Shown: positions 16,542 through 38,045 of the stretch, one piece after another
Position numbering within the stretch: the stretch's first letter is position 1
Layout: the number at the start of each line of letters is the position of its first letter
IMG/VR virus record: IMGVR_UViG_3300028888_000119
Location: 1 to 64,000 of that record
Reading direction: 5' to 3' (one strand)
Source: a virus
Lineage: Duplodnaviria; Caudoviricetes
DNA: 64,000 nucleotides
Position numbers and translations under genes: made by a program
The notes under the pieces: generated by a model
The model's input: only the letters and a program-made list of their open reading frames with translations
What the model was told of the DNA's origin: nothing
Databases searched by the model: none

Positions 16542-16657
16542 CGGACGGAGCAGGACTCGAACCTGCGACTTCGCCCGGCGCCATCTACCAGCATAGCAAT
16601 CAACCGCTGCATACTCCAGTAGTGCCTGCGACCTCTAACCAGCTGAGGTATCCATCC
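16542..16657 (-). ncRNA. tRNA-like RNA 1 with elongated anticodon arm
   Basis: Acceptor GGATGGA/TCCGTCC, D arm CCTC-AGCTGGTTA-GAGG, T arm GCAGG-TTCGAGT-CCTGC; about 64 nt between D and T arms instead of about 22; ends G-CAA. Confidence 0.7.
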
Positions 16658-25440: not shown

Positions 25441-25545
25441 TGGCTGGGAAGGGATTCGAACCCCTGTCTACCGCAGAGCGCTAACACGAAATAAACACTA
25501 AACTCAAAAAATCCCGGTCGCTGCTACCAATTGCACCACCCAGCC
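25441..25545 (-). ncRNA. tRNA-like RNA 2 with U-rich anticodon insertion
   Basis: Acceptor GGCTGGG/CCCAGCC-A, D loop AATTGGTA, T loop TTCGAAT in AGGGG/CCCTT; lower anticodon stem ACCG/CGGT encloses about 40 nt. Confidence 0.7.
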
Positions 25546-29098: not shown

Positions 29099-29129
29099 TT
29101 TGATATTTGGAAAATAGTACCTACCTTTG
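29099..29129 (+). promoter_or_regulatory. Rightward early promoter PR
   Basis: TTTG (29099-29102) and TACCTTTG (29122-29129), 19-nt spacing. Confidence 0.7.
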
Positions 29130-29190
29130 TAATAGCAAAAGGGGAGAAATAAAGCCCTGGAAGATGTTAAATTTTTAAAATTTAGTTATT

Positions 29191-29589
29191 ATGAAAGCGA
29201 CAATTTACAAAGGTATCGAAAACATGACAAAAAAGGAAATCATTTGCGCCCGTGCCACGGAAAAGCGGAATGTTTCCGCGGAACTGGCAAATTTTGCCAA
29301 CTCGTTAGAGTTTGCCGGAAAACAATTAACTGCAGTAGGGAGTGCAGCAAGAAACGCGGCAAACGCAACAAAGGGAACTTTTAAAACGTGGCTGCAAGTC
29401 GTTTCGGCTTGTTACCCTTACCAAACGGAAAACGGGGAACTTTGCACGAAATCGAAAGGGGTGTATAAACTTCGCAAATTGTCCGGCCGTGGTGCAGCCG
29501 GGGCCGTGGTTGCTGCATCCGTTAAAAATTACATCGATTTCAAAACGGGTCGCGTTTCTGAGTTGGTTACTATCGTAGTGCCCGAATAA
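29191..29589 (+). CDS. Hypothetical basic protein, first early gene
   Basis: 132 aa, TAGTTATTATG start context. Confidence 0.75.
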   Translation: MKATIYKGIENMTKKEIICARATEKRNVSAELANFANSLEFAGKQLTAVGSAARNAANATKGTFKTWLQVVSACYPYQTENGELCTKSKGVYKLRKLSGRGAAGAVVAASVKNYIDFKTGRVSELVTIVVPE

Positions 29590-29596
29590 ATAAGTA

Positions 29597-30040
29597 TATG
29601 CCCGTGCACGGGTGAAACTTTGCACGGGTGCGAATAAATCCGGACTTTTTCGGACTGCAGAAACGCACAAAGGGACGGCCGAACGGCCCGAACGGACCTG
29701 CACAAAGCACGACGAAACAAGACGGCCCCGTTACCGCTATGATGGGGAGATAGGTAAATAGCGGACGGAACTATCGAGGAATGGCGAACTATACCTGAAC
29801 GGGTACAAGCGTCGGACTGAGACCGCACGAACGGGGCGAAAAAATCCCAATTAGTGCCATGACATTGTGTAGGTATGCCGGAGCGGTGGGTGACGCGACG
29901 AGGGCAGTAAATCCGAACAATGGATATAAATAGCCGAACAAGATTTGGAGCGGAGGGTATCGGGATGAAACGATACTATCCGCTTTTCTTATGGGTGTAA
30001 AAGGGCGAGACGCTGGCCGACCGAATCGGCCTGCACCCAC
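29597..30040 (+). ncRNA. Candidate large structured ncRNA
   Basis: No credible ORF; many helices (CCCGTGCA/TGCACGGG, TCCGGA/TTCGGA, TGCAG/CTGCA, CCGCTAT/ATAGCGG, AGCGGA/TCCGCT, TGGGTGTA/TGCACCCA). Confidence 0.5.
29949..29990 (+). terminator. Terminator-like hairpin inside the structured region
   Basis: AGCGGA-GG-GTATCG-loop-CGATAC-TA-TCCGCT then TTTCTT. Confidence 0.55.
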
Positions 30041-30091
30041 TATGATGTTTAACGAGAAGTTGCGCACGACACGAACGAAGTGCGGAAAGAT

Positions 30092-30253
30092 ATGGACGCG
30101 ATCGACTGGGTTTTTATTGGGCTGGTTGCCTTGATGGTGGCAGCGATGCTTGCGCCGTTTTTCGGTGCTCCGGTGTGGACGCTGTGGGCGGTTCCGGCAT
30201 TGCTGTTTGCGGTGTTGGAGGTAGGTTTTAACATGGACAAAATAACGGAATAA
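30092..30253 (+). CDS. Small membrane protein
   Basis: Manual translation MDAIDWVFIGLVALMVAAMLAPFFGAPVWTLWAVPALLFAVLE..., 53 aa, 2 hydrophobic segments. Confidence 0.65.
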   Translation: MDAIDWVFIGLVALMVAAMLAPFFGAPVWTLWAVPALLFAVLEVGFNMDKITE

Positions 30254-30254
30254 A

Positions 30255-30455
30255 ATGAAACTTTGGAAAGAACGAATTGCAGTAAGCGTGTTTTTCACGT
30301 TCTGCGTAGTATTGAGCATCACGATGGTGTGTTGGGGTTTTAATGTTGATAGTTATGCGTTTGCTTGCAAGGCGATTGGCTTTTGTGGGTGCATCGGTTT
30401 TCCGGTTTGCTGGCGGAATGCGTGGAACGATTTGAGCGAGGAGGAAGAGCGATGA
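30255..30455 (+). CDS. Small membrane protein
   Basis: 66 aa, 2 hydrophobic segments, Cys-rich. Confidence 0.65.
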   Translation: MKLWKERIAVSVFFTFCVVLSITMVCWGFNVDSYAFACKAIGFCGCIGFPVCWRNAWNDLSEEEER

Positions 30456-30652
30456 ATAGGGGCCAGGCTTGGATTGTGGCGCTCTTGGGCGTGATTGCGC
30501 TTGAGGGAGCGGTTACGGCCTACGAGGTCGTGCGCATTGCGCGGAACGGTTTTGAAGTAAGTTTAACCAAGGAGCAGGCCGACGAGATCGTGGAGGAAGT
30601 AGAGGAGGCGAAGGCTGCTGCAATGGAGGACATGAACAATGAGAGCAATTGA
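30452..30652 (+). CDS. Small single-TM protein
   Basis: Start refined to MNRGQAWIVALLGVIAL (30452); acidic tail. Confidence 0.6.
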   Translation: MNRGQAWIVALLGVIALEGAVTAYEVVRIARNGFEVSLTKEQADEIVEEVEEAKAAAMEDMNNESN

Positions 30653-30896
30653 ACGAAAAGCGTTGGCGGCATTCAATGAGTGCAGGCCATTCAAGGAGAG
30701 CAACACTGAGGTTGTTGTGACCAAAGAGTCCGTGTGTGTTTATTTGTTCGGGAACATGATTGTTTGGAAAGACCGGACGACGGGCGAGGTGAGCTACAGC
30801 CATTGCGGATGGCACACACCGACGACCGCGTCCAGGTTGAGGGCGTTCGGAGCAAATGCATACATTAGGAAAGGAACATTAATAATTGAGAAATAG
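30639..30896 (+). CDS. Hypothetical protein
   Basis: 85 aa, YLFGNMI...CGWHTPTTASRL motif common in phages. Confidence 0.7.
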   Translation: MRAIERKALAAFNECRPFKESNTEVVVTKESVCVYLFGNMIVWKDRTTGEVSYSHCGWHTPTTASRLRAFGANAYIRKGTLIIEK

Positions 30897-30898
30897 TT

Positions 30899-31216
30899 AT
30901 GAACGAAGTTAAGGTTGGCGACATTCTCGCCGGAACGTTGGGTTACTCGATGGTAATCCCTTGTTTTTACGTGGTAACGAAGGTGACCGCAAAGGGCATC
31001 AAGATGTACGAGGTAGAAAAGAACATCACCGGACAGCAGGGTTATGAGACTCCGGCCGAACCGATTCGACCGAGATATGGCGAATTAGTTCCCAATGAGG
31101 TCTTTGCAAAGCCTTGCAAGGACTGGGATGGTCACTGGAAGACTGGCGGTCGCTACGACCACCGGTATGTCTCGAAGTGGGACGGACAGCCTGTTTGGGC
31201 GGATTACATGGACTAA
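30899..31216 (+). CDS. Hypothetical protein
   Basis: 105 aa, VKVGDILAGTLGYSMVIPCFYVV. Confidence 0.75.
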   Translation: MNEVKVGDILAGTLGYSMVIPCFYVVTKVTAKGIKMYEVEKNITGQQGYETPAEPIRPRYGELVPNEVFAKPCKDWDGHWKTGGRYDHRYVSKWDGQPVWADYMD

Positions 31217-31273
31217 GCGATGTTCTGCGTGGACGGGAATTATTACTTTATGAGCAAATAGGAGGAACGAAAA

Positions 31274-31582
31274 ATGAAAACGATTGAACAAGTATTGAGC
31301 GTGTGTCCGAAGCAGGACAAGGCGTATGTGTTAATGAACGGAAGATGGCACAGAATTGCCGAGCATGAGGTGCGGGCTATTCAGGTATCCGTTTGTCTCG
31401 GCTGTTTAGAGCCGCCAAGGATAAAATGCAGCAACGGGGAGGAATTGAGATGGGACAAACAACGCCCAGGGCATTTTCTCGATATTAATACCAATCTATT
31501 CCGAGTGAGTACGGAACAAACTCGGAATTTGATGAGGGCGGAAATATTAAATGAGGAATTGGGGCGTAATGACAAGAAATAG
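31274..31582 (+). CDS. Hypothetical protein
   Basis: 102 aa in operon. Confidence 0.65.
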   Translation: MKTIEQVLSVCPKQDKAYVLMNGRWHRIAEHEVRAIQVSVCLGCLEPPRIKCSNGEELRWDKQRPGHFLDINTNLFRVSTEQTRNLMRAEILNEELGRNDKK

Positions 31583-31588
31583 ATAGTT

Positions 31589-31783
31589 ATGAAACTCAGA
31601 GAATTGAAGCAGGGCGATAAGTTCCAGTACGCCCAGTATCCGAGCGGAGCGCCCTATGTGAAGGGCAGCAAGATTCAAGGGAGCGTGGATTTGTACTACG
31701 TGCACTCAAAATTAATCGGCTATGTATATATGGCCGATGGTGGCGATGATGTTATCAAGATTGGAAATATTAACGAGGAATAG
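31589..31783 (+). CDS. Hypothetical protein
   Basis: 64 aa, MKLRELKQGDKF. Confidence 0.65.
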   Translation: MKLRELKQGDKFQYAQYPSGAPYVKGSKIQGSVDLYYVHSKLIGYVYMADGGDDVIKIGNINEE

Positions 31784-31785
31784 TT

Positions 31786-32082
31786 ATGGAAAAGTACAGC
31801 AACAACAAGAAATTGAACGGAGTCCTCAATGAAATCCGAGAAGACTTGTTAAGTATCCACGACACCGAGGACGAGAGCCGGAGGGAGATTGAGCACTACA
31901 AGCGCGAGTTCCCGAAGGAGATTGACTTCAATCTGGTTCAGTATGGCAACATGCTGATTTACTACGACGACGTGAGGGCCATGTACGCCAGGCACGGATA
32001 CAAGAGCATGGACCGCATGAGCGATGCCCAGGTATGGGAGACCTATAAGAGACAAGTAGGATATGTAGCAAGAACAATATAG
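31786..32082 (+). CDS. Hypothetical protein
   Basis: 98 aa in operon. Confidence 0.75.
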   Translation: MEKYSNNKKLNGVLNEIREDLLSIHDTEDESRREIEHYKREFPKEIDFNLVQYGNMLIYYDDVRAMYARHGYKSMDRMSDAQVWETYKRQVGYVARTI

Positions 32083-32084
32083 TT

Positions 32085-32336
32085 ATGAAAGCAACAATCA
32101 ACCACGGCAAGCGGGGGACAGACATCGACAAGCTGGTTAAGGAGTATGACTTTGACTGTCCGAGAGAATACTACGGATACATTGTTGATTCGTATGTGAA
32201 CGGTCATAACGATCAAGTTATCGAACTATTCAACCGGATGAAGGGAGATTTGCAAAAGAGTTTCCTCTTGAATATCGAATTCATGCAGCCGGTGTATGGA
32301 GAGAAGATTCATGATTTAATCATTAAGAGCTTATGA
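32085..32336 (+). CDS. Hypothetical protein
   Basis: 83 aa, YIVDSYVNG. Confidence 0.7.
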   Translation: MKATINHGKRGTDIDKLVKEYDFDCPREYYGYIVDSYVNGHNDQVIELFNRMKGDLQKSFLLNIEFMQPVYGEKIHDLIIKSL

Positions 32337-32566
32337 ACAAGAAAGAGATTGCCGCCTATGTGCGGAACAATGTGGAGGACTACGAGGAGCGCCTGCAGTT
32401 GGCGCTGAAGCGAATGGACCGGATGCGCTGCCCTTTGAGGATGGCGGACAACGGTTTGTATGACGAGATGTGCGATGCGGTGGAGGATTGGTGCTTTGAC
32501 AACGACGTGGATTTCTACGAGATTGATCTGGAGGAGTTGATTGATGAAATCATTTGGGAGGAATGA
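32333..32566 (+). CDS. Acidic hypothetical protein
   Basis: 77 aa, strongly acidic C-terminus. Confidence 0.7.
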   Translation: MNKKEIAAYVRNNVEDYEERLQLALKRMDRMRCPLRMADNGLYDEMCDAVEDWCFDNDVDFYEIDLEELIDEIIWEE

Positions 32567-32700
32567 TTACGGCATTTGGCAGACCGGTTCCTCAGTTTGT
32601 GATTGACGAGCTGGTAGCGGACGGTATTCCGCTTGAAGAAATAACCACTGAGTTTATTGAAACATCCTTCGAGTATGAGCGAAGGGATAACGAGGAATAA
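32563..32700 (+). CDS. Small acidic hypothetical protein
   Basis: Manual translation MITAFGRPVPQFVIDEL..., 45 aa. Confidence 0.5.
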   Translation: MITAFGRPVPQFVIDELVADGIPLEEITTEFIETSFEYERRDNEE

Positions 32701-32702
32701 AT

Positions 32703-32894
32703 ATGGCACAGCGAGTAACATTGCGCCAGGCTGTGGAATTGTTGAAGCAGCAGGGCATTGATGTCGAATGGAATGATTTGACGCTGGAGGACTTCTTCAT
32801 TTATTTCGACCATCATTACAAGGCTGACTGCGAGAACGGCACGTTCCCGAGGGTCAGTTTCTTTTTCACTGACATCTTAGAGATTTTTAGGTAA
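32703..32894 (+). CDS. Hypothetical protein
   Basis: 63 aa in operon. Confidence 0.6.
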   Translation: MAQRVTLRQAVELLKQQGIDVEWNDLTLEDFFIYFDHHYKADCENGTFPRVSFFFTDILEIFR

Positions 32895-33401
32895 ATGAGA
32901 CGAGTAAAAGTGGTATTGGTCTGCGACGAGGGATTCGTGGCGGACAGTCTGCGGGACTTTGCGACCGCATATGAGGACAACTTCGGCGACTGGCACGAGG
33001 TCGAGCATGGCAGTGGATTCCTTGAATTCATCGAGGAGCCGGATCCTGAGCCGAGCTTGGCGGAAGTGTTCGACAAGAAGAGGGAGTCTGTTATGGACGA
33101 GAGAGAGAGGCGACGCAGGGAATTAGAAAGGATGGATGAAGAGGAGAGGGCGTGGATTATGGAGATGGCCGAGAAACTCGCCTTCCTGCGGGAGCGTGGT
33201 TTTGAGGTCAAGACACATTTCGGAGGAATCGTGAACGGATGGCCGTACAACTACGTTCACATCGGTCGTGGACGCTGGGTGGATATTGAGGGGAGTTCTG
33301 TCCGCAGGAAAGACGGAACGCTTGACCAGTGTTCTCCGTACATCGAAAATTACAACAACCCGACGATGGAGGCTCTTCTCGAAGAGATTGCGACATGGTA
33401 G
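32895..33401 (+). CDS. Hypothetical protein
   Basis: 168 aa with charged coiled-coil middle. Confidence 0.7.
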   Translation: MRRVKVVLVCDEGFVADSLRDFATAYEDNFGDWHEVEHGSGFLEFIEEPDPEPSLAEVFDKKRESVMDERERRRRELERMDEEERAWIMEMAEKLAFLRERGFEVKTHFGGIVNGWPYNYVHIGRGRWVDIEGSSVRRKDGTLDQCSPYIENYNNPTMEALLEEIATW

Positions 33402-33640
33402 GCAACGCAATCTACCTGCTTTTCTGCAAGCATCTGAGCGACGGCCAGGGCGGTCACGAGATACTGCAGACACCGCACGCGACTTTTGACGGAGCGTACG
33501 AGCACATGCAAGCAATTAAGGAACACTTTGAAAGCAAGGATTTCGAAGTGAAGGAAGTACCGGACGGGTCGTTCTATGTGACCGGGCCGTTCGGGTTCAA
33601 GAGACTTTATTATGTAGTAACAAGTACAATAGAGAAATAA
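33395..33640 (+). CDS. Hypothetical protein
   Basis: Start refined to MVGNAIYLL (33395). Confidence 0.6.
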   Translation: MVGNAIYLLFCKHLSDGQGGHEILQTPHATFDGAYEHMQAIKEHFESKDFEVKEVPDGSFYVTGPFGFKRLYYVVTSTIEK

Positions 33641-33642
33641 TC

Positions 33643-34371
33643 ATGGCAAAGACAGAATTTAAGCACTCCTACAAGGAGTTTGGAGCGGAAGCAATCTGCA
33701 CGAGGGTCCAGCAGATGCTGGCATTCAGGGACGAAGTGGATGTGCCCGAGTCTCATGTAAAATTCAGCTACGACAATCGGAAGACTGGCGCGCTTGTTCC
33801 GTCGGTCAGTTTGATTCCGGTGGCCGACTGCGGGAACTGCGCGGTTTGCGCGAAGGGATGCTATGACGTGCGTAACGTCTGCTTCCAGAAGACAGTGCAG
33901 AAGAGCCGTGCCAACAACAGCGCGATTCTGCAGAATGACCCTGGCAAGTACTGGAGGGAGATTGAGCAGCGAATCAGCTGCCTGCGGTTCTTCCGATTCC
34001 ATGTGGGCGGAGACATCAAGGACTACAGTTACTTCGTTAACATGGTCGGTATTGCGATGAGGAATCCTCACTGCGAGATCCTGGCATTCACGAAGATGTA
34101 CGACATCGTCAATGAATTCATCAGCTACGCTGGTGGGGTTGATGCGATGCCGAAGAACTTGCACATCATCTTCTCGGATTGGCGCGGGGCCGAGTTTGAG
34201 AATCCGTACAACTTGCCGGTTAGCAGCCCGATTTGGCCGGACGGTACGAAGGGCCCGCACTGCACAGACAAGGTGTATATGTGTGAGGGTGACTGCAGTG
34301 CGTGTGCTGAGACGCGCAATGGTTGCTGGGCGGCGAAGAGAGGTGAAACAATTTTATTTGAAGCGCACTGA
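33643..34371 (+). CDS. GP88-like Fe-S / radical-SAM-like protein
   Basis: CGNCAVCAKGCY, FRFHVGGD, AFTK, C-terminal CEGDCSACAETRNGCW. Confidence 0.65.
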   Translation: MAKTEFKHSYKEFGAEAICTRVQQMLAFRDEVDVPESHVKFSYDNRKTGALVPSVSLIPVADCGNCAVCAKGCYDVRNVCFQKTVQKSRANNSAILQNDPGKYWREIEQRISCLRFFRFHVGGDIKDYSYFVNMVGIAMRNPHCEILAFTKMYDIVNEFISYAGGVDAMPKNLHIIFSDWRGAEFENPYNLPVSSPIWPDGTKGPHCTDKVYMCEGDCSACAETRNGCWAAKRGETILFEAH

Positions 34372-34403
34372 TATATGGCACAATTATTGTAGGCACGTAT
34401 ATT

Positions 34404-34700
34404 ATGGAAGCAATAGAAATTATAAAAGCGATGGCGTACGATAGTGCGCTCGCAGAGAACAGCAATGTGTGGTATTTCGATTCGTCTGACGCTCAGAAGA
34501 GGGTATCTTATGTGTTCGGCGATTTTGAAATCACCGACGGGCAGTTTGATTCCGGCTACTACTTGGCGGTATGGTCGGTAGATGCCGATAGCATTTGTCC
34601 GTTCCAAGAAGACAATAAACCGGATGTTACTCTAACAAGGGTCCACAAAGAGGACTATGACGAAGATGACAACCAAATTTATTTATGGAGGATAGATTAA
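34404..34700 (+). CDS. Acidic hypothetical protein
   Basis: 98 aa in operon. Confidence 0.65.
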   Translation: MEAIEIIKAMAYDSALAENSNVWYFDSSDAQKRVSYVFGDFEITDGQFDSGYYLAVWSVDADSICPFQEDNKPDVTLTRVHKEDYDEDDNQIYLWRID

Positions 34701-34701
34701 T

Positions 34702-34929
34702 ATGAATGCGAAACGAAAAAAGGAAATCGAGAAGGTTATAAGCCGTCTCGAAGAAATCAAGGAGGAACTCGAATACATCCTTGAAGAAGAGCAGGAGGCG
34801 TATGATAATACGCCGGAAAGCTTATGGGAAACAGATCGTTACACCGAGTCGGAGGAGGCTATCAGCGCAATGGAGGAAAGCGCAGATAACATCGGAGACG
34901 CGATTGATAATCTCAGCGACATATGTTAG
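34702..34929 (+). CDS. Highly acidic helical protein
   Basis: 75 aa, EEEQEAYDNTPESL. Confidence 0.8.
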   Translation: MNAKRKKEIEKVISRLEEIKEELEYILEEEQEAYDNTPESLWETDRYTESEEAISAMEESADNIGDAIDNLSDIC

Positions 34930-35096
34930 CATGTCTTACATACGAAGGCTACACGCTGTACGGGAGGGATCTTGGAGGGTACCGCTCGTATATTGATGGC
35001 GAGTCCGTCAACTTCGATACGGTATCACAGTGGGTTCAATTTATAAATTATTTGGAAAATGGCAAACGTAAGGAGACCGCTGATCGCGGTAAATGA
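34923..35096 (+). CDS. Small hypothetical protein
   Basis: Manual translation MLACLTYEGYTLYGRDLGG..., 57 aa. Confidence 0.45.
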   Translation: MLACLTYEGYTLYGRDLGGYRSYIDGESVNFDTVSQWVQFINYLENGKRKETADRGK

Positions 35097-35289
35097 GGAA
35101 ACCGGAGAGAGAGTACGGTTCGATAGGGTCGCGGACTGCACGGATTATTTTGGTGTAAAGCGGGCCTCAGTGCTACATGCCGTAGCGATGGGGTCGTACA
35201 TCAAGGGGTGGAGAATATATGACACCCCCGAAAAACTCAGAGAGAAGATCGAAGAAATAAAGAAAATCATTAAAAAGCTAGAAAAATGA
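35059..35289 (+). CDS. NUMOD1-like HTH protein
   Basis: RFDRVADCTDYFGVKRASVLHAV...KGWRI. Confidence 0.6.
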   Translation: MANVRRPLIAVNEETGERVRFDRVADCTDYFGVKRASVLHAVAMGSYIKGWRIYDTPEKLREKIEEIKKIIKKLEK

Positions 35290-35477
35290 GGGAAATAAAA
35301 AGCGCAGCTGAAATCTGCAAGAGTAGCGGGTATGAAACCGAGTACGAATATGCATATGCTTGCGGAACATTACGCAGTATGTTAGAGTGCATCATTACTT
35401 GGATGTACGATTATGAGGATCCGAAAATGATCCGTAACATGATTGAGAGCGTAGTCTCAAATGTAGTAGTTAAATAA
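35286..35477 (+). CDS. Hypothetical protein
   Basis: 63 aa in operon. Confidence 0.6.
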   Translation: MREIKSAAEICKSSGYETEYEYAYACGTLRSMLECIITWMYDYEDPKMIRNMIESVVSNVVVK

Positions 35478-35496
35478 TTTATAAAAACACACACAC

Positions 35497-35799
35497 ATGA
35501 AAACAAAAGAAAACCTCGTAAAACTCGGTCTCACGGAGATGCAGGCCGATGACGTGATGCTCCTGGAGAGCAAGATGCTTGAGACCGCAGTGCGGTTCCA
35601 GTTCAAGAAGAAGGACGGGTCGCTGAGAGAAGCGGTCGGAACGCTCCGCAGGGAGAAGATGGTGCAGGAGGACGGAAGCGTATGGGAGCCGGTTGGTGTA
35701 GAGAAGCCGGAGGTGCCCACATTGGTTAAGTACTGGGATCTTACGGTCCAGGGCTGGCGGTGCTTCAATGTGTTCAACCTTGTGGCGGTGGAGGGGTAG
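35497..35799 (+). CDS. WYL_2-like SH3 beta-barrel protein
   Basis: VRFQFKKKDGSLREAVGTL...YWDLTVQGWRCF. Confidence 0.75.
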   Translation: MKTKENLVKLGLTEMQADDVMLLESKMLETAVRFQFKKKDGSLREAVGTLRREKMVQEDGSVWEPVGVEKPEVPTLVKYWDLTVQGWRCFNVFNLVAVEG

Positions 35800-35821
35800 G
35801 AAATCGAAAACAAATAAAGAT

Positions 35822-36025
35822 ATGACACAGAAAGAATTAGACAAGTGGTTCAACAGTCTGGACTCCTTTGAGATCGCTGAAATCTTCCCCAGCCTTTATG
35901 AAGAGGTGATGGCATCCGCTGATCCCACAGTCAACATCAACACCTTTGTCAAGGAGGCAAAGTCTGACTGGAAGGGAATGACCAAGGAACAGAAGGAAGA
36001 ATATTACCATCTGGTGGAGGGCTAA
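35822..36025 (+). CDS. Hypothetical protein
   Basis: Start refined to MTQKELDKW. Confidence 0.65.
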   Translation: MTQKELDKWFNSLDSFEIAEIFPSLYEEVMASADPTVNINTFVKEAKSDWKGMTKEQKEEYYHLVEG

Positions 36026-36028
36026 GTT

Positions 36029-36415
36029 ATGGCACTCAATGTAAGTTATGTAAACCGCATCGGTTACTACACGAAGACCGAGAAATGGCCGGATGAGCCG
36101 GACAGGAAATTTAAGAACTGGATGTGTCACGCCAATGTAGACTTGTGGGCTGACATGTACTTCTACAAGGTATCTGAGGACCACGAGGAGTTCGGGAAGA
36201 AGCTCAAGAAAGGCGAAAAGCGTGTGCAGCTCATCGGGTTCTGGTGCGACCTTGGTCATCTCAAGCGCGCCATGAAGGATGACTGCTACCGTGGATCTGA
36301 TGACTTCCACTTCTTCGCAGACCAAATGGACGCGGACATCTGGAAGGCTGTCAAGGTCCTGGTGGAGGCTGGCAAGAAGGTAACGATAGTTAAATCACAA
36401 AAGAAAGCGAAATGA
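36029..36415 (+). CDS. Hypothetical protein
   Basis: 128 aa in operon. Confidence 0.7.
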   Translation: MALNVSYVNRIGYYTKTEKWPDEPDRKFKNWMCHANVDLWADMYFYKVSEDHEEFGKKLKKGEKRVQLIGFWCDLGHLKRAMKDDCYRGSDDFHFFADQMDADIWKAVKVLVEAGKKVTIVKSQKKAK

Positions 36416-36639
36416 AAATCTACGTAGGAAGATGGGACTTGCTCCCAGAAGATATTGAAGGATACAATAGACTTTCCGAAATGGACCATTGGGATGCTTC
36501 CGAGGAGGTTGCCCGCGAGAAACGACACTCGGACGACACGTTCATCGGTGAGTATTCTGGTGAAGAATTCGAAGATACTTTCAACCAGAGTTTCACTCAT
36601 TTTATCGATTCGAAAGATTACTGGATTAAAATTTTCTAG
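36412..36639 (+). CDS. Acidic hypothetical protein
   Basis: 75 aa in operon. Confidence 0.7.
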   Translation: MKIYVGRWDLLPEDIEGYNRLSEMDHWDASEEVAREKRHSDDTFIGEYSGEEFEDTFNQSFTHFIDSKDYWIKIF

Positions 36640-36641
36640 AC

Positions 36642-37025
36642 ATGGGACAGACTTATGATGTCAACCTCCGCGTGAGGTTCAAGGATGAGAAGGGCGCAAA
36701 GAATGCCCTTCTCGCAAAGATTGGTCGCGCCCAAGAAGAGCGCGTACTATACGACATGCAGGGCCTCCGCATGAAAGGCTTCGACTTTGATAATATTTTG
36801 GACTTGATGTCCGTTTTCTTCTGCGGATGGGGACAAAGGCTGAAGGTGGCAGACAAGAGCTGGCTATACTCCTGCTTCGATGCGAGTTACGGATGGGAGA
36901 ACGTCATGATGGACGCGTTCGATAAGATTGCGCCATTCTTGGAAGATGACTCCGAGATTAAGATTTATCCCGATTCCGGTCGGGATTATGGTTATGTTGA
37001 AAACGGACAAGTAATTTGGCAGTAA
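36642..37025 (+). CDS. Hypothetical protein
   Basis: 127 aa, FDASYGWENVM. Confidence 0.7.
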   Translation: MGQTYDVNLRVRFKDEKGAKNALLAKIGRAQEERVLYDMQGLRMKGFDFDNILDLMSVFFCGWGQRLKVADKSWLYSCFDASYGWENVMMDAFDKIAPFLEDDSEIKIYPDSGRDYGYVENGQVIWQ

Positions 37026-37026
37026 T

Positions 37027-37230
37027 ATGGCACAAAGAGTATTATTTAGGACAAAGGCTGATGCTTACGCTGCAGCGAAGAGATCCGGCGAGCCTTTCTA
37101 CACATCGAAATGTGTCTGCGATAGGCTTTCCCAAATCGCAGACGCAAAACTGGCAAGCGAGGGATGTACCGGTGAGACCGGCTGCTTTCGTGGGCCGAAT
37201 GGTGCAATCTATGCATGGTGGGAGGAATAA
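37027..37230 (+). CDS. Hypothetical protein
   Basis: 67 aa in operon. Confidence 0.6.
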   Translation: MAQRVLFRTKADAYAAAKRSGEPFYTSKCVCDRLSQIADAKLASEGCTGETGCFRGPNGAIYAWWEE

Positions 37231-37232
37231 TT

Positions 37233-37661
37233 ATGAGAATCGACGAAGACAAACTTGAGGTCTTGCTGGAGCACATTTTCAGCCTGCACGAAGCAGAAGC
37301 CATCCTTGAGATGCTTGACGAGGACTGCGAAGAGTTTTCCGGAGAAGACATTTGCCAGTACATCGAATGGTGTCACAAGCGCTACGAGTCCGGAGAGGAT
37401 ACGGAGTTCGACTCTTGGCTTGAAGACCGGAAGCATCGTGTTCACATTGAAATTTTCGCCACCGAATGCGGATGCCTAATCCACGAGAAACTCGAATTCC
37501 CCAAGCGCGGTGAGGATATGGACCACGGCACTGAGTATGAGTGGTACTACTCCCTTCGCGAAGTTACCGATGAAATCCTAGCTCTTCCGATCGGTGGGTC
37601 TATGAACTTTAAAATCCGTGACGACGTAAATAGCCACGGAGTAATTGTTAGAACCGCATAA
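37233..37661 (+). CDS. Acidic hypothetical protein
   Basis: Start refined to MRIDEDK. Confidence 0.7.
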   Translation: MRIDEDKLEVLLEHIFSLHEAEAILEMLDEDCEEFSGEDICQYIEWCHKRYESGEDTEFDSWLEDRKHRVHIEIFATECGCLIHEKLEFPKRGEDMDHGTEYEWYYSLREVTDEILALPIGGSMNFKIRDDVNSHGVIVRTA

Positions 37662-37676
37662 GCAAAATTAATTTAT

Positions 37677-37907
37677 ATGACACACATTCACCAGGTGGCC
37701 GTGAAGCAGGTCACACAGCAACTAATCAACATGCTTCAAAATAACATTATCGAGGACAATGGAACAGAGTCTTTTGAGTCTTGGTGCGAAAGTGGTGCGG
37801 TATTTGCAGAGCACCCGTCCTATGAAGCTGAGTGCATCGATCTAATGGAGAAGGTCGCACCGCTCATCGATGAATTAACTTTTACATATCTTAACTTCGG
37901 ATACTAA
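37677..37907 (+). CDS. Acidic hypothetical protein
   Basis: 76 aa in operon. Confidence 0.65.
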   Translation: MTHIHQVAVKQVTQQLINMLQNNIIEDNGTESFESWCESGAVFAEHPSYEAECIDLMEKVAPLIDELTFTYLNFGY

Positions 37908-38045
37908 TGTTTATTCTAATATATTTGCTCTGCGGATTGGCATTCATTCCGGAGTTGTTTAACGAAAAACGGTAGCGCACAGAGTATGTTTTTCATGATA
38001 ATGCTGCTGGCTTATTTAGATGATTTGCTAGCAAGGAGGTAGCCT

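Follow-up and report, generated by a model that had tools for sequence, protein, structure and literature searches.

A conserved structured RNA behind the first early gene of an uncultured Bacteroidota-type phage, with alternating elements at its 3′ end

To our knowledge, few large structured RNAs of phages are known, and none of them has an assigned function. Closest in kind to the RNA considered here are GOLLD and ROOL (PMC5737381; bioRxiv 10.1101/2024.12.08.627333), phage-borne RNAs that extend over hundreds of nucleotides, contain many covarying helices and pseudoknots, adjoin tRNA-like elements, and have no known function. Ribozymes flanking genes in prophages imply the processing of long transcripts (Perreault et al. 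2011, PMC3088659). In plant mitochondria, t-elements are reported to help to form the 5′ and 3′ ends of mRNAs (PMC1920247).

The RNA analyzed here resembles GOLLD and ROOL in all the features listed above, but it is smaller (with a core of ~350 nt), has no sequence or model similarity to either, is linked to a single orphan gene and a putative cutting element, and has a narrow distribution of about 20 contigs. With the ribozyme-punctuated prophage operons (PMC3088659), the locus of relatives shares a ribozyme, predicted to be self-cleaving, at a gene boundary within a polycistronic phage transcript. In contrast to those operons, the cutter here would bound a large conserved non-coding RNA and not genes only, and a tRNA-like element can take its place at the same site.

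Genomic setting and family of the element

The window (i.e. the whole stretch of 64,000 nt that was analyzed) belongs to a 72.7-kb IMG/VR virus record of an uncultured Bacteroidota-type phage. Leftward genes, which extend up to ~28 kb, encode an HNH endonuclease, a D5-like primase-helicase, and an SF2 helicase; the GC skew switches sign at ~28-29 kb, and a rightward gene block begins at 29191. Sequence reading and a pattern scan located the −7 element TACCTTTG at 29122-29129 (+), with TTTG ~19 nt upstream. By the Bacteroides promoter consensus, we take it to be a Bacteroidota-type promoter element, and it probably acts as the early promoter. It is the single occurrence of TAnnTTTG on the + strand from 29122 to 37920. 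Since no further + strand TAnnTTTG follows until 37920, transcription must pass through the RNA region (29600-30040).

The first early gene (29191-29589, +) encodes an orphan protein of 132 aa (gp132) with 23 homologues of 61-90% identity and with synteny in relatives. No sequence match was found for it in Pfam, PHROGs, or PDB. An AF2 model was confident (pLDDT 86), and its fold had no match in Foldseek searches of PDB and BFVD, a VIA wide search (best Z 3.3), or the ESM Atlas. The next small early ORF (30094-30253, +), which was taken from the ORF list and the sequence, encodes a hydrophobic protein of 53 aa from ATG and is the first gene 3′ of the putative cutting signal.

The gap between these two genes (29590-30040) is non-coding, as the sequence-only reading had proposed. 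Stops interrupt each sense frame 4-7 times in the window and 3-15 times in 16 relatives. An indel-length test against coding gave the same pattern for a control gene as for the element. Compared with shuffled sequences, the whole region folds better on both strands (z = −3.27 on + and −2.77 on −). With 137 G, 130 A, 103 C, and 74 T, the element is purine-rich on the + strand.

The family was assembled from contigs carrying homologues of the 132-aa protein and extended with contigs retrieved by DNA patterns from conserved blocks. It comprises nine IMG/VR contigs (including the window), with the remainder from Logan, ENA, and JGI metagenome assemblies. About 20 distinct related phage contigs keep an element of 450-700 nt directly 3′ of the 132-aa homologue, and the homologue lies directly 5′ of the RNA in every family member with upstream sequence (L002-L030, L135-L144). 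In all of these members the stretch is free of sense-strand gene calls, and three have an antisense call only. Among 50,697 deposited phage genomes, blastn and tblastn found no family member. The DNA patterns TCNGGACTTTTTNGNACTG and CCGAACNNNNGNTATAAAT, whose matches were not inspected singly, gave no recognisable member save L117, which is the same contig as L003. Four candidates (L134, L142, L143, and L147) were discarded as chance matches of later patterns. In the alignments, conserved blocks alternate with helices of variable length. As the family is small and narrow, part of the covariation reported below may descend from few events.

The interval 29590-30040 matched no Rfam family at the gathering or a permissive threshold (E up to 10), in agreement with the earlier failure to place it by eye. 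Specifically, there was no match in this interval to GOLLD, ROOL, OLE, raiA, HEARO, RNase P RNA, tmRNA, group I or II introns, or T-box; ARAGORN found no tmRNA either. When 11 relatives were compared with Rfam (E up to 1), twister alone was matched, and nothing was matched in the core. The core RNA thus matches nothing in Rfam 15. Elsewhere in the window, the Rfam tRNA model matched 16542-16657 (−; 116 nt) and 25441-25545 (−; 105 nt) at 39 bits; ARAGORN called neither of them.

Structure of the core RNA

The window carries conserved, strand-specific RNA structure at 29590-30040. The sequence-only reading had proposed a single large structured RNA of a family not known. Its conservation, its covariation, and its lack of an Rfam match were upheld, but the 444 nt do not form a single RNA, because the last 48 nt form an independent mini-helix that is also found between genes elsewhere. 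The region is a composite of a core of ~350 nt (29600-29945), a hairpin (29947-29986), and the mini-helix (29993-30040). The core, which contains many single-stranded CGAAC sites, represents a new RNA family.

At its 5′ boundary lies the predicted hairpin CCCGTGCA/TGCACGGG (29600-29629, +; −18.9 kcal/mol). A hairpin follows the stop codon at the same position in 16 of 17 homologues, with energies of −18 to −28 kcal/mol and in at least seven different, unrelated sequences. In L018, L135, and L138, it takes the shape of an acceptor stem plus T-arm, and its loops in homologues are T-loop-like (UUCGAAU, AUCGAUA, UUGAAUG).

The hairpin is followed by a conserved single-stranded block, AAAUC(C)GGACUUUUU (29636-29650, +), which is near-invariant in the alignments and whose flanks are unable to pair in most relatives. 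A TCCGGA/TTCGGA helix noted earlier in this part had to be abandoned: relatives have AUCGGACUUUUUGCAAC, which cannot form it, so that what is conserved is sequence and not a helix. A long-range pairing of UCGGACUU (29640s) with AAGUCCGA (29910s) was also rejected. It is perfect in four relatives, yet a one-sided G-to-A change is uncompensated, and the 5′ block is kept in relatives that have no 3′ partner.

Further downstream, the hairpin GGCC-GAAC-GGCC (29677-29688, +) is placed in a junction between GGGAC and CGAACGGAC. Compensatory changes support it, as the stem becomes ACCU/AGGU, UGCA/UGCA, GACU/AGUC, or GGC/GCC in relatives. The enclosing TGCAG/CTGCA helix was found in the window's subgroup only; in other relatives its register is shifted.

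Covariation also supports an H-type pseudoknot (29726-29764, +), with stem 1 at 29726-32/29741-47, stem 2 at 29734-40/29758-64, and AGAUAGGUAA as loop 3. Across the family it follows the pattern CCCCGUU-A-(7 nt)-GAUGGGG-nnAUAGGUAA-(7-nt complement). Among 17 distinct sequences, 99.2% of cells are paired, vs 36-49% with slid partners. Both stems covary. Changes on both sides were counted in 9 of 14 pairs, including all seven of stem 2, the CCGCTAT/ATAGCGG helix proposed earlier; in stem 1, C-G alternates with U-A, and U-A with A-U. Stem 1 also holds two invariant G-U pairs; as these would turn into C-A on the opposite strand, the RNA is read from the + strand. CM R1 scored 61 bits for the pseudoknot. 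Two other elements of the earlier proposal did not hold: the CCGT/ACGG extension of the CCGCTAT helix is unsupported, and a GATAG/CTATC pseudoknot fails for lack of conservation of CTATC. Instead, CCCCGUU and GAUGGGG, which flank the 5′ strand of the CCGCUAU helix, pair to make the true pseudoknot.

A central domain (29825-29922, +) was delineated by covariation and by the MFE fold of the window. Its five helices are (i) GCAC/GUGC (29825-28 with 29854-57); (ii) an inner hairpin (29833-36 with 29845-48); (iii) the long-range CAUUG/CAAUG (29863-67 with 29918-22); (iv) UGCC/GGCA (29876-79 with 29903-06); and (v) GCG/CGC (29883-85 with 29894-96), all on the + strand. RNAalifold on a MAFFT alignment of this domain recovered one helix; the others were set by hand and then counted. 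Pairing reached 91.4% vs 20-44% for slid partners, with both-sided changes in 10 of 21 pairs, and the window's own MFE fold returned the same helices.

Three loops in the core are near-invariant, i.e. AUAGGUAA, GUAGGUA, and GACGCGA. The motif UA(G/A)GUA occurs in three copies across the family, two of which are present in the window (29750-29756 and 29870-29875). It recurs as AUAGGUAA in the pseudoknot's loop 3, as GUAGGUA at the head of the central domain, and as AUAAGUA in a domain inserted in relatives, around GGGAUAAGUACGCC.

The recurrence of CGAAC, which had been noticed by eye, proved to be far above expectation. Six copies are present in the 444 nt; dinucleotide shuffles had a mean of 1.4, and six were reached in one of 500. 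Its density is 0.4 per kb in the rest of the + strand block. Over 17 homologues, CGAAC occurs 10.3 times per kb in the element vs 1.9 in the flanks (about five-fold), and its complement GTTCG is nearly absent from the element. Enrichment of the one and near-absence of the other mark the + strand. In the window, the CGAAC sites are located in loops and in stretches between helices.

Alternating elements at the 3′ end

In most relatives, the 3′ end of the element is built like a twister ribozyme of type P5. The complete layout, GAA-AACA-GAUGGG-(P1 hairpin)-U-UAA-UGUU-ACC-(P3)-GAGUG-UCCAAAGU-CAC, is present in at least nine relatives, among them L024 (2830-2922), with all stems kept; P2, the U-AA site, and P4 with its GUCCCAAG-type loop are found 3′ of P1. 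In eight aligned relatives, 99.5% of cells are paired over P1, P2, P4, and both pseudoknot contacts, and P2 covaries (AACA/UGUU to AGCA/UGCU in L018). The likeness to Twister-P5 (RF02684, clan CL00120) comprises the permuted order of P2′ AACA, GAUGGG, the closed P1 hairpin, and the U-AA site, followed by P2 UGUU, an optional P3, and a P4 loop UCCAAAGU that can form both pseudoknot contacts. At conserved positions, the relatives differ in having ACC for GCC and the loop UCCAAAGU for UCCCAAGC; relative to the Rfam consensus, one pseudoknot contact is changed from GC:GC to AC:GU, with compensation. Scores stayed below the cut-offs. Twister-P5 gave 28.2 bits on L024 (cut-off 37.6, E = 2e-4, 161-nt search) and the twister-P1 model 32.1 bits on L017 (cut-off 67.2); neither the window nor the relatives (28-32 bits) reached the Rfam gathering cut-off for twister. 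From this architecture, the elements of the relatives would be expected to cleave themselves 3′ of P1. In L144 (4334-4440), an insertion of ~100 nt lies within the P1 stem, and all core twister elements are kept.

The window is without a ribozyme, and only P1 and a decayed 5′ strand remain. The relic (29935-29992, +) consists of the degenerate 5′ strand CGAACAAGAUUUGG (in relatives, GAAAACAGAUGGG), the hairpin at 29947-29986 (−22 kcal/mol, z = −6.4), and the U-rich tract UUUUCUUAU. The sequence-only reading had called a terminator-like hairpin at 29949-29990. The hairpin is real; its identity is a different one. By position it is homologous to P1 of the relatives, in which the twister is intact, and on this basis we identify it as the surviving P1 stem of a type-P5 twister. 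No twister was matched in the window by Rfam at E up to 10. Downstream of P1, UUUUCUUAU leads directly into the mini-helix, and neither UGUU, ACC, P4, nor a GUCCCAAG-type loop was found there. In the window and five relatives (L002, L015, L030, L136, and L138), a U-rich tract and the mini-helix take the place of all sequence 3′ of P1. Two of these contigs (L015 and L138) retain an intact twister 5′ strand, GAAAACA(A/G)AUGGG, which makes the swap look recent.

The mini-helix (29993-30040, +; 48 nt) consists of a 7-bp acceptor-like stem, GGGUGUA/UGCACCC, followed within it by AAAA, the mini hairpin GGC-GAGAC-GCU, the T-arm-like hairpin GGCCG-ACCGAAU-CGGCC, and, after the stem closes, A-C. Its helices, reported earlier as a three-way junction of TGGGTGTA/TGCACCCA with GGCCGA/TCGGCC, gained covariation support in relatives. 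Among eight sequences, 97.7% of cells are paired and 8 of 16 pairs show both-sided changes (six of seven in the acceptor, two of six in the T stem). The 7-bp acceptor stem is stacked on a T stem of 5-6 bp, in agreement with the MFE fold of the window copy. The loop reads ACCGAAU or AUCGAAU and the 3′ side A-C-U, so that neither the T-loop consensus nor a 3′ NCCA is present, and the Rfam tRNA model has no match at this position. CM R2, built for the mini-helix, scored 69 bits and found a single copy in the window.

Further copies lie outside this site. In L025 (3379-3425, +; GGGCCGUA ... UACGGCCC, 42.6 bits), a second copy separates a 55-aa early ORF, whose stop codon it directly follows, from the gene after it; this indicates that the mini-helix moves between gene boundaries within the phage family. 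Copies were also found between small ORFs in unrelated high-GC phage contigs (L145, 5716-5763, and L146, 4763-4810, both on the − strand), with a near-identical mini hairpin, GGCG(A/C)GAUGCC, and the T-arm GGGGGAUCGAAUCCCCC. Judged from sequence, the mini-helix is a widespread, uncatalogued, and independent intergenic module with the shape of the acceptor/T-arm half of a tRNA. An identity as an HDV-like, hammerhead, or pistol ribozyme was dismissed, as there is no conserved downstream partner strand and there are no core motifs. A small ORF was likewise dismissed, the ATG being ACG in two copies and the frame being shifted in L138.

The acceptor/T-arm half of a tRNA is a minimal substrate of RNase P. 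Shape and position make the edges of the stem candidate sites for cleavage by RNase P and RNase Z. The mini-helix is like RNase P mini-helix substrates and plant mitochondrial t-elements (PMC1920247) in its 7-bp acceptor-like stem stacked on a T-arm-like hairpin, in its G-C start after U, and in its intergenic position on the coding strand, at which cleavage would set the ends of mRNAs. In contrast to them, it has no CCA, has the loop ACCGAAU and not UUCRANY, belongs to no Rfam family, and carries a conserved 3-bp mini hairpin, GGC-GNGAY-GCY, in place of the D and anticodon arms.

In L003 (3880-4040), L016 (880-1000), and L026, other 3′ modules replace the twister or mini-helix; those of L003 and L016, searched alone, matched no Rfam family. 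All three could be further cutting devices. In several twister-type relatives and L003, a hairpin with the loop GAAGGAGG lies just 5′ of the first downstream start codon (L003, 4040-4056; L021; L023; L027; L144, 4495-4512), in the form CCGCC-GAAGGAGG-GCGG or GGCC-GAAGGAGG-GCC. The loop resembles a displayed Shine-Dalgarno sequence, which is unusual for Bacteroidota-type phages.

Possible roles of the core RNA

Taken together, these observations make it fairly probable that the uncatalogued core RNA (29600-29945) is cut away from the early mRNA that follows it and remains as a stable RNA. Its transcription starts from the single early promoter, the 132-aa gene lies immediately 5′ of it, and it would be delimited by processing signals, i.e. 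a mini-helix-like hairpin at its 5′ end and a stable hairpin followed by a cutter at its 3′ end. In most relatives, a type-P5 twister that uses the hairpin as P1 would cleave just 3′ of P1. In the window, a U-rich leader and the mini-helix stand in for the 3′ half of the twister, and host RNase P would be expected to cut at the 5′ edge of the mini-helix, before G29993. Either cutter would separate a hairpin-capped, folded RNA from the downstream early mRNA, and the released core RNA would probably persist. As two unrelated devices occupy one site 3′ of the same hairpin, an RNA cut from the early mRNA is the simplest reading. Twister leaves a 2′,3′-cyclic phosphate and RNase P a 3′-OH. Since the end chemistry of the two cutters differs, the separation itself, and not a particular end, seems to be selected, and their mutual replacement at one site may be taken as natural evidence for such selection.

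As for function, our guess is protein binding, with gp132 or a host factor recognizing the repeated single-stranded CGAAC and GGAC. This is favored by the CGAAC/GGAC repeats, the copies of UA(G/A)GUA, and the strict linkage to one orphan gene; the link between gp132 and the RNA is adjacency alone. Only tentatively do we extend this to a new ornate class of phage RNA, freed by interchangeable cutters and acting in trans early in infection, either as an RNP with gp132 or as a decoy for a host protein. Such a decoy would use its repeated CGAAC and GGAC sites to sequester an RNA-binding or defence protein of the host. With its strong covariation, fixed protein-gene partner, and defined boundaries, the ~350-nt core offers a tractable system for structural work and for testing roles of early phage RNAs, and the mini-helix adds a compact, widely scattered candidate for an operon punctuation mark.

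The main rival reading dispenses with a role in trans. As a structured 3′ UTR or intercistronic insulator, the element would shield the 132-aa mRNA from exonucleases by its body and end hairpins, and the cutter would make the first gene independent, in stability and translation, of the small genes downstream. Such a role would suit an element that is always located directly 3′ of the same gene and a mini-helix that, on its own, punctuates other gene boundaries, and phage operons commonly have cutters where one gene adjoins the next (PMC3088659). However, a protective 3′ end requires one hairpin and not 350 nt, and the conserved pseudoknot, the near-invariant loops, and the covarying long-range helices exceed this need, so that we regard a purely insulating element as rather unlikely. 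Even less can be said for a cis-acting RNA of processive antitermination, similar to HK022 put, that would modify RNA polymerase for the long early operon, as the sequence-only reading had considered. RNAs of the put type act while tethered to the elongating polymerase. The twister of most relatives would sever the RNA just downstream from the nascent transcript it must ride, and every family member whose 3′ module was typed has a cutter immediately 3′ of the element. The element is located near the start of a long single-promoter operon and is followed in the window by a terminator-like hairpin with a U tract, yet this tract is absent from twister-type relatives (GCUUUAAUG) and the element exceeds put five-fold in size; antitermination is a poor fit and unlikely.

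We give similarly little credence to a role as pre-primer or origin RNA, in which the transcript would form an R-loop and prime replication as ColE1 RNA II does. The sign change of the GC skew at ~28-29 kb adjoins the region, a divergent replication module (HNH, D5-like primase-helicase) lies alongside, and the transcript is purine-rich; against priming, the different end chemistry of the two cutters means that a primer 3′ end is not the conserved product, and no conserved repeats were seen at the DNA level. Least credible of all is that the region codes for protein on the minus strand, as in some public gene calls (e.g. 29789-30322). Long antisense frames are indeed open in the window and most relatives, but two to three of them are open simultaneously in most relatives, the signature of a sense strand that is purine-rich by composition. 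Three antisense ORFs over or adjoining the region gave nothing above the Pfam cut-offs. Moreover, helices are kept by compensatory changes, the invariant G-U pairs would be C-A on the other strand, and relatives are distinguished by insertions of whole helices.

Public gene predictions lay antisense ORFs of 140-214 aa across the RNA in three relatives (L015, 2380-3024; L017, 2538-3044; L022, 2566-2994; all on the − strand), and the corresponding call in the window (29789-30322, −) has 177 aa. These calls are probably artefacts of the purine-rich sense strand.
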